Below, piece by piece: positions 564 through 1,828 of a stretch of DNA of 64,000 nucleotides. The notes beneath the pieces were generated by a model. That model saw only the letters and a program-made list of their open reading frames with translations. It was not told the DNA's origin and searched no databases. This stretch comes from an uncultured Chloroflexota bacterium (GTDB taxonomy: Bacteria > Chloroflexota > UBA11872 > UBA12225), in contig CADCTC010000204.1 of NCBI GenBank assembly GCA_902805635.1, positions 10,903-74,902 on the forward strand, in the 5' to 3' direction. Each line of letters starts with the position of its first letter. The stretch's first letter is position 1. The position numbers were made by a program, and so were the translations under genes.

Positions 564-995
564 TTATGTGACGGCCGCCGGCACCGGCACAACGCGCGTA
601 ACGGCGTCGCGCAGGCGGCTGATGGTGGCCTGCTTGCCGAGCACCGCGTCGACCCCGGGCGGCTTCTCCCCCGCGTCCATCAGATCGCCGAAGCCGGTGA
701 GCAAGATGATGGATGTGGTGGGAGATCGCCCCTTTATGGCTACGGCGAGCTGATCGCCGCCCATGCGCGGCATGGCGCGATCGGTGACGACCAAATCGAA
801 CGTTCCCGTCTCGAACGCCGCCAGCGCCTCGACCCCGTCGGAGGCAGCCGTGACGGTGTGGCCTTCGGCCCGCACCAGCGCTTCGGTGATTTGGCGCACC
901 TGCGGATCGTCGTCCACGATGAGGACGCGCAGCGGCGCCGGCCGGGAAGGGGCGGCCTGGCCGTTCACCCCCTCTGCACTACGGGTCAGCTCCAC
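564..995 (-). CDS. CheY-like receiver domain protein (probably the C-terminal part of a decayed hybrid sensor kinase)
   Basis: Receiver motifs are present: RVLIVDDDPQV, DLVVTDRAMPRMGG and IILLTGF. The only start is GTG at 995. The frame stays open upstream through a HATPase_c tail and the 8-bp repeat. Confidence 0.8.
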   Translation of the reverse strand: MELTRSAEGVNGQAAPSRPAPLRVLIVDDDPQVRQITEALVRAEGHTVTAASDGVEALAAFETGTFDLVVTDRAMPRMGGDQLAVAIKGRSPTTSIILLTGFGDLMDAGEKPPGVDAVLGKQATISRLRDAVTRVVPVPAAVT

Positions 996-1828
996 GTGCG
1001 GGAATCGCAGCAGGACGCCCGTGCCGCCACCGGGGTGACTTTCAATGGCAACCGAGCCGCCGTGACGACGTGACGACGTGACGACGTGACGACGTGACGA
1101 CGTGACGACGTGACGACGTGACGACGTATGGTGGCCTGAGCAGCATGGGTCGAGTCAAGAATGCTGGCGTGGACCTCTTGCGCCCATCTCCAGGTCAGGT
1201 GCGCTGCCAGGATACCGCGCACGTCGCCATTGTCGTCCACGACCGGCGCCGAGACGTCTAGGAAGCGCATCGGCTCGCCCGACGGACTGGGGAGCAGGCT
1301 GCTGAGCAGCTCTGCCTTGTGCACGTCGCCCACGAAAACACCGCTAGCCCCGCGGGCGAACACCGGTCGCTGGGAGATGTTCATGCCTTCAAGCACCCCG
1401 CCCGTGCCGGCGCGCACCACGCCATCCGGGCGGACGAAGCCCAGCCAGGCGTAACTCGGAAACGTCCGCTGCCGCATCTCCATAAGCTGCCGCTGCTCCT
1501 CCTGGGTCACATCCGGAGCGGTCAGCGTCTCGATGGAGGCGACCAACCGTATCTCGCGATGGCGCTCGAACATGCCGCGGTCAAGTGCGCCCGCCAAAGT
1601 GCGGGCCAGGGCGGCGAGATCCTGCCCGGTTTGTGCTGCGCGCTGGCGCTCCGCGGCGGAACCTACCGGCGCACTGATGAAGATCACGAACGCGCTGGTG
1701 GTGGCGCCGAAGGTAAGCGCCAGACGCGCACGCAGGCTGCGCGATGGGTTCAGCGATTGACGGGTGGACTGGTGGTCCGGTGCACTCTCCTTGGTAACGG
1801 CGAGTGGTGTGGCGAGTGCTGGCCCCAT
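986..1828 (-). pseudogene. Sensor histidine kinase remnant: N-terminal membrane anchor plus extracytoplasmic Cache/PDC-like sensor domain, with the kinase core missing
   Basis: There is an N-terminal TM segment (LALTFGATTSAFVIFISAPV). It is followed by a sensor-like domain of about 200 aa (SYAWLGFVRPDGVVRAGTGGVLEGMNISQRPVF...). The ORF then reads straight into (RRHVVTSS)n encoded by the repeat and stops inside the receiver ORF. No HisKA H-box and no N or G1 boxes are present. Confidence 0.6.
1061..1127. repeat. Perfect tandem repeat of 8 copies of CGTGACGA plus a partial CGT
   Basis: Counted directly. The units are 1061-1068, 1069-1076 and so on to 1117-1124, followed by cgt. Confidence 0.97.

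Follow-up and report, generated by a model that had tools for sequence, protein, structure and literature searches.

In a 64,000-nucleotide (nt) stretch of DNA from an uncultured Chloroflexota bacterium (contig CADCTC010000204.1 of assembly GCA_902805635.1; called here the window, to which positions refer unless another contig is named), a perfect tandem array of an 8-nt unit lies exactly where the N-terminal part of a membrane-anchored sensor kinase meets the C-terminal end of a hybrid histidine kinase and its receiver domain. The locus is probably a dead sensor-kinase remnant, or two kinase genes joined by one deletion, and its junction holds an ordinary simple-sequence repeat. An earlier note on this DNA had left two options open, an unusual decay product or an on/off junction operated by slipped-strand changes in repeat number. 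The first is supported, the core domains being missing in comparison with intact homologues and not found elsewhere in the genome bin; the second is unsupported, as no copy number gives a kinase.

A perfect 8-nt array between two kinase remnants

Tandem Repeats Finder detected at 1061-1127 an array of period 8 with 8.4 copies and 100% matches, whose unit is CGTGACGA; eight exact units start at 1061, 1069 and so on to 1117. On the gene strand, all three reading frames across the array are free of stop codons and encode permutations of RRHVVTSS. Folding of the array as single-stranded DNA gives a hairpin, interrupted and built of three-pair blocks (-25.9 kcal/mol, z = -6.9), that may favour slippage of the tract.

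The open reading frame (ORF) that enters the array from its 5' side encodes a cytoplasmic N-terminus, a first transmembrane segment (TM1, about residues 36-56) and the membrane-distal lobe of a dCache_1 domain. The Pfam match of the 280-residue ORF to dCache_1 is weak and covers only positions 6-148 of the 240-position profile. For residues 1-233, a search of 1.84 billion representative proteins gave 1578 homologues, of which the best is 52% identical; no closer match was found among these representatives together with 5.8 billion proteins, and none of 40 related genomes holds an orthologue. In the best 150 of the 1578 homologues the alignments run from query residues 16-66 to residues 208-232, and therefore homology stops just before the array. 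Nine intact homologues scanned with Pfam are proteins of 650-900 residues with the order TM1, dCache_1 (about positions 3-239 of 240), second transmembrane segment (TM2), HAMP, often PAS, HisKA and HATPase_c, followed by a C-terminal receiver in two of the nine. The sensor fragment follows the intact kinases through ...AHLTWRWAQEVHASILDS... and ends where their membrane-proximal Cache lobe begins. A natural family of short proteins made of an anchor and a distal lobe was also considered and rejected: database relatives of about 280-300 residues are fragments at contig ends that enter the proximal lobe, and there is thus no natural family with the distal lobe alone.

On the other side of the array, the first 22 residues in the receiver frame match the C-terminal strands of HATPase_c residue for residue, both in paralogues from the same genome and in hybrid kinases from the databases, with G2, S8, G11, G13, T14 and P21 invariant in the alignment. 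The receiver frame is also open upstream across the whole array, where it reads ...SSRRHGGSVAIESHPGGGTGVLLRFPHVELTRS.... The Response_reg domain, at about 600-926, has a complete phosphorylation pocket, comprising the acidic pair DD, the phospho-acceptor Asp (in TDRAMP), the Thr (in LLTG) and the Lys (invariant D50, D51, D94, T122 and K143). Two gene calls are on record for the receiver ORF. On reading of the sequence, neither possible start, GTG 995 or GTG 968, proved to have a Shine-Dalgarno-like motif within usable distance on its upstream side. Within positions 1-2200, no promoter-like site was found, the single terminator-like match is at the chance level, and an Rfam scan gave no matches.

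The kinase core is missing

The two breakpoints are separated by 416-536 residues in those proteins that align with both halves of the locus. Compared with the intact homologues, the locus has lost the second (membrane-proximal) Cache lobe, TM2, HAMP, PAS, HisKA and all of HATPase_c except its last 22 residues. This corresponds to about 1.25-1.6 kb of missing DNA if a single gene was affected, and to more if there were two. Neither ORF has a Pfam match to HisKA at E <= 1; the domain is present in nine of the nine homologues scanned. Neither matches HATPase_c, of which no more is left than the 22 C-terminal residues that follow the HGG motif. The locus retains one defining part of a hybrid sensor histidine kinase, the receiver with its Asp pocket, and is without a HisKA domain, a complete HATPase_c and a complete two-pass sensor. 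When the bin was searched by tblastn with the proximal lobe, TM2 and HAMP of eight homologues, only weak HAMP matches in unrelated kinases were recovered.

Whether the two remnants come from one gene bears on how the lesion arose. The sensor half resembles the dCache_1-HAMP-(PAS)-HisKA-HATPase_c(-REC) kinases, which are mostly cyanobacterial, being 41-52% identical to them with TM1 and the distal lobe aligned throughout. Unlike these kinases, the locus lacks everything from the proximal lobe to the G2 region, and its tail and receiver are only 25-36% identical to the Cache-family hybrids. By contrast, tail and receiver are 50-54% identical, over about 95% of their length and from the first residue past the array, to PAS/GAF-HisKA-HATPase_c-REC hybrid kinases, cytoplasmic proteins found in Chloroflexota and soil bacteria; the label Chloroflexi appears on several relatives of this half. 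None of the best 120 of these matches carries a Cache domain, unlike the Cache-linked locus studied here, so either the sensor has a different ancestry or the ancestor was a mosaic. Since the nearest kin of the sensor half are cyanobacterial Cache kinases and those of the receiver half are not, two neighbouring kinase genes may have been fused by a single deletion. The similarities would fit an ancestor that was a mosaic hybrid kinase as well as a pair of neighbouring kinase genes cut by one larger deletion, and the junction would be a scar either way. The cyanobacterial kin of the sensor, set against the Chloroflexota and soil PAS/GAF kin of the receiver with their paralogues in this very genome, hint that the sensor-bearing gene may have been gained horizontally. 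The proposal in the earlier note that the repeat replaces the core of a hybrid kinase is thus right in that the core is missing at the array; it assumes a single ancestral gene, and the deletion may instead have spanned two adjacent ones. In the comparison with intact kinases that the note called for, these carry 416-536 more residues between the breakpoints, from the proximal Cache lobe through most of HATPase_c.

Repeat number and reading frame

The frames of the two halves are offset (1828 mod 3 = 1, 995 mod 3 = 2), and every change by one unit alters their relation. With the eight units present, the locus encodes a truncated sensor and a separate receiver ORF, the two overlapping by 10 nt. 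A loss of 8 nt or a gain of 16 nt brings sensor and receiver into one frame; the product of seven or ten units would consist of TM1, half a Cache domain, the repeat residues, 22 HATPase_c residues and the receiver, a topologically nonsensical protein according to its domain map. A gain of 8 nt creates a stop six codons past the array, and with six or nine units translation ends early at this point. The products of all three frame states would lack kinase function.

What had been read from the letters of the locus proved largely accurate. The perfect eightfold repeat was upheld by Tandem Repeats Finder and the unit positions, the membrane anchor and Cache-like sensor running into it by a hydrophobic anchor and a partial dCache_1 match, and the HATPase_c end directly 3' of the repeat, open into the receiver, by alignment and frame reading. 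Pfam and the homologue alignment bear out the absence of TM2, HAMP, HisKA and the N and G1 boxes. Translation of the minus strand confirmed the three stop-free permutations of RRHVVTSS, and the arithmetic by which losing one unit or gaining two yields a fusion is correct. A suggested check for arrays of CGTGACGA at other loci found none in the 6.1-Mb genome.

Simple-sequence arrays across the genome

The genome bin comprises 6.1 Mb in 327 contigs, is 89% complete and has 68.7% G+C. Counting perfect arrays of at least 24 nt with units of 4-15 nt, we found 105 (17 per Mb). One megabase held 13 such arrays, and none was left after triplet shuffling, a genome-wide excess over a random model that preserves composition. 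The kinase array is not a product of chance, because the shuffled megabase was without perfect arrays of this length and an array of this unit occurs once in the genome. On informal inspection by eye, the array lengths decrease smoothly and do not cluster at any one value, as a k-mer collapse would make them do.

Units of 9 nt account for about 70 of the 105 arrays, with up to 14 copies. Much less common are units of 6, 12 and 15 nt, so the preference for 9 nt looks mechanistic and more than a matter of selection on the reading frame. The long 9-nt arrays that were inspected encode tripeptide repeats (AAP, GTA, GTT, ASS and others) in enzyme and kinase linkers and also in the transposases of insertion sequences (IS). 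The other long arrays inspected, with units of 7, 8, 10, 11 and 13 nt, either shortly precede a start codon or follow a stop codon. Coding and non-coding flanks were called by direct inspection of translations, a classifier based on third-position G+C (GC3) periodicity being too noisy for quantitative use. Since 9-nt arrays are tolerated in genes and the other long arrays inspected whose unit is not a multiple of three lie outside them, the 8-nt array marks DNA that has been freed from being read as a single protein. The kinase array is one of a genome-wide class of long simple-sequence repeats, and its position is expected once the frame no longer matters.

Comparison of IS paralogues showed that the arrays change. 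The IS on C142 (10329-10388) carries (GCGCGGATG)x6.7, where its 95.5%-identical copy on C19 (19293-19307) has GCGCGCATGGCGCGG, or 1.7 copies; similarly, the IS on C296 (2309-2367) carries (CCACCTCAG)x6.6 and a 93-98%-identical copy on C142 (196-218) has x2.6. Within each pair the two copies share one 9-nt unit. Because the paralogues differ in copy number, the arrays are real and dynamic. This is direct evidence that arrays expand in place, and recently, inside transposase genes. At another pair of loci, paralogous and with about 86% identical flanks, C211:706-738 and C179:1247-1292, the same position is occupied by CCAGGGTCAAA x3 (11 nt) and by TGGGTCAAAGCC x3.8 (12 nt), respectively.

In an independently assembled genome of the same family (G004; loci L015, L017 and L019), a 182-kb sample contained four perfect arrays with units of 14-15 nt, about 22 per Mb; a 97-kb sample of another contained none. 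The family has the array habit in common, with a favoured unit length that, from this small sample, seems to differ. Loss of mismatch repair was considered as a simple cause of the arrays and rejected, MutS-family genes being present.

Two long arrays in 5' regions, with units that are not a multiple of three, were noted on other contigs. At C138:7497-7585, (GCGCACCA)x11 ends about 27 nt before the start of an ORF (MSTTTAST...), and at C283:3377-3447, (CAGTTGC)x10 lies upstream of an aspartokinase-like ORF. Both are candidates for effects of repeat length on expression, and as possible switches they hold more promise than the array in the kinase locus.

A possible local origin of the kinase array

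The paralogues read GTV(R/Q)RHGG-x-I-x-S-x-PG-x-GT at the position where the receiver frame of the locus reads ...SSRRH|GGSV. The R-R-H codons (CGT CGT CAC) and the first G of the next Gly codon fall in the last repeat unit. Because this unit encodes the R-R-H that precedes GG in the paralogues, the array appears to have grown from native HATPase_c codons. It is in register with the conserved local sequence (RRH-GG), as expected of a repeat arising in place; for other arrays of the genome, there are paralogous sites that have not expanded. On the simplest reading of the sequence, a native CGTCGTCACG of 1.25 units would have been amplified. The seed would have been the codons CGT CGT CAC G (R-R-H-G), and the 8-nt repeat would have expanded in place, probably through replication slippage. 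One deletion would have removed the region from the proximal Cache lobe through most of HATPase_c. Either this deletion came first or the first 8-nt duplication may have killed the gene; slippage of the array against some brief, similar sequence upstream of it would likewise place it exactly at the join. The tract very likely still gains and loses units.

Features of the locus and neighbouring gene

The features of the locus, together with examples of related kinases and of 9-nt arrays, are collected in Table 1. Beside the locus, at 212-481 on the plus strand and convergent with the receiver remnant, an 89-residue ORF encodes a LuxR/GerE helix-turn-helix alone (E 2e-18), without a receiver domain. 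It may act as a regulator on its own, or it may be a further two-component gene that was cut short.

Table 1. Positions of the features of the kinase locus and examples of related kinases and arrays
Feature	Position	Strand	Basis or content
N-terminal sensor fragment, residues 1-233	1128..1828	-	Pfam dCache_1 at residues 66-209; homologues; alignment to intact kinases
280-residue ORF	986..1828	-	sensor fragment, 22 array-encoded residues and 25 out-of-frame residues
Perfect (CGTGACGA)x8.4 array	1061..1127	.	Tandem Repeats Finder and unit positions; gene strand reads (TCGTCACG)n
HATPase_c C-terminal remnant, 22 residues, GGSVAIESHPGGGTGVLLRFPH	996..1061	-	receiver frame; paralogue alignment; tblastn/blastp matches start at residue 1-2
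Receiver ORF, 143 residues from GTG 995 (NCBI: 134 residues from GTG 968)	564..995	-	Pfam Response_reg, E 5e-21
Stop/start overlap	986..995	-	direct reading; sensor-frame TGA at 988-986, 5 nt downstream of the first possible receiver GTG at 995-993
Cache-family kinases, mostly cyanobacterial, examples			P0003, P0007, P0155 ('Adaptive-response sensory-kinase SasA', source's name)
PAS/GAF hybrid kinases, examples			own-genome paralogues on C304 and C131; P0176, P0180, P0203
9-nt arrays, examples	C93:4177-4305, C4:9644-9729, C216:13651-13735, C305:9491-9573, C131:22817-22898		

Discussion

Long simple-sequence repeats with units of 5-11 nt have been described in prokaryotic genomes (Mrazek et al. 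2007, according to the summary in PMC11868660). The kinase array resembles them in being perfect, in exceeding a random model, in being one of many, in having a unit within the 7-9-nt range and in its local origin; what sets it apart is its place exactly where a deletion has brought two kinase remnants together. The preference for 9 nt in this genome, and for 14-15 nt in the small related sample, is a detail of the lineage of which we did not find a description. Slippage-prone tracts that set the frame are also known from the coding regions of sensor kinases and response regulators. The bvgS gene of Bordetella pertussis varies in phase through a C-tract (Stibitz 1989, as cited in PMC11868660; PMC1891110), and flgS and flgR of Campylobacter jejuni do so through frameshifting tracts (PMC3930126). 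The present locus shares with these genes a tract whose length sets the frame. However, in bvgS and flgS/flgR the tract is a homopolymer and the ON state is a complete functional protein, whereas the present locus has an 8-nt unit and has lost its catalytic core, so that function does not return at any length.

That the cell exploits the array as a functional slipped-strand switch, a change in unit number deciding whether the receiver is made separately, is fused to the sensor or lies beyond an early stop, is very doubtful, although several properties of the locus agree with it. The array is long, perfect and stop-free in all frames with a unit that is not a multiple of three; three classes of copy number give three different coding outcomes; arrays of this kind do change length in the genome; the hairpin potential of the single strand may raise slippage; and two-component genes vary in phase elsewhere, as bvgS and flgS/flgR do (PMC1891110, PMC3930126). 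Yet none of the states contains HisKA or a complete ATP-binding domain. In the absence of a second membrane pass, the receiver of the fusion would lie outside the cell, away from any phosphodonor. Tuned repeats in coding regions concentrate near N-termini (PMC3315296), whereas this tract follows codon 233 at a scar in the middle of a gene, and the other long arrays inspected whose unit is not a multiple of three avoid coding sequence. Moreover, the host is an uncultured Chloroflexota with a large genome and not a host-adapted pathogen. Set against what marks a phase-variable locus, there is a slippage-prone tract of suitable unit length; there is no functional ON state, nor the 5'-end placement that is typical, if not obligatory. 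A more specific version, in which a hypermutable three-state junction sets the output of an orphan receiver in a free-living Chloroflexota, has in our view only a slim chance of being true. In it, the receiver could be made by re-initiation at the overlapping GTG with eight units, could be tethered to the membrane-anchored Cache fragment with seven or ten, and could be uncoupled with six or nine, when upstream translation ends early.

It is likewise improbable that the parts were salvaged, the receiver ORF, perhaps together with the anchored half-Cache, being expressed as a stand-alone single-domain response regulator with the array as a mere spacer. The receiver is intact in its DD, D, T and K residues and is called as a gene by two pipelines, and its first start overlaps the upstream stop, which could allow re-initiation. 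But no promoter-like site was found in 1-2200 and neither GTG is preceded by a Shine-Dalgarno-like motif at a usable distance; intactness says little at 69% GC, where stops are rare, and in a lesion that may be young, and half a dCache domain is unlikely to fold. Unlikely, too, is a fault of assembly, in which the contig was mis-joined or collapsed at the repeat and either the core is present in the real genome, for instance on a short contig left out of the bin, or the array does not really have eight copies. Contigs of 1-2 kb are commonly missing from bins, and a perfect array of 67 nt is a classic difficulty for short-read graph assemblers; this genome is a bin of 327 contigs and 89% completeness, and the locus has no second assembly for comparison. 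Against such a fault, the intact gene would need two identical 8-nt arrays within the conserved Cache and HATPase_c folds, which is implausible, and the bin has no other array of CGTGACGA. By eye, the lengths of arrays across the genome do not cluster at one value, and arrays differ sensibly between IS paralogues and continue the native sequence in register.

We therefore favour the decayed locus, and it should be noted that several observations weigh against it. Neither coding flank contains a stop or a frameshift and none of the catalytic residues of the receiver has been lost, so that either the lesion is recent or selection still acts on the pieces. The overlap of the sensor stop with the first receiver start resembles that of translationally coupled genes, though one such overlap could easily be chance. 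CGT is rare as an Arg codon (three of 39 in a neighbouring gene), which leaves the native seed unproven. Finally, the copy number and the join rest on a single assembly of the locus: 90%-identity clusters of 15 billion proteins held no second copy besides this contig, a look-up of the exact proteins gave no match, and an exact 24-mer from the receiver-side flank was absent from the metagenome and genome contigs searched.

If the tract did toggle and the receiver were expressed, the locus would be a rare repeat-driven signalling switch in an environmental bacterium; the three-state version, if true, would be phase variation of a signalling module made from a kinase wreck, in a non-pathogen and with an 8-nt unit. 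On the reading of a decayed locus, its main bearing is on annotation: the 280-residue 'Cache protein' and the 134- or 143-residue 'response regulator' are two stumps left by the destruction of a kinase locus, and their records should say so. More broadly, the expansion of short repeats is an active mutational force in this lineage, producing tripeptide repeats in proteins and, in 5' leaders, tracts whose unit is not a multiple of three.

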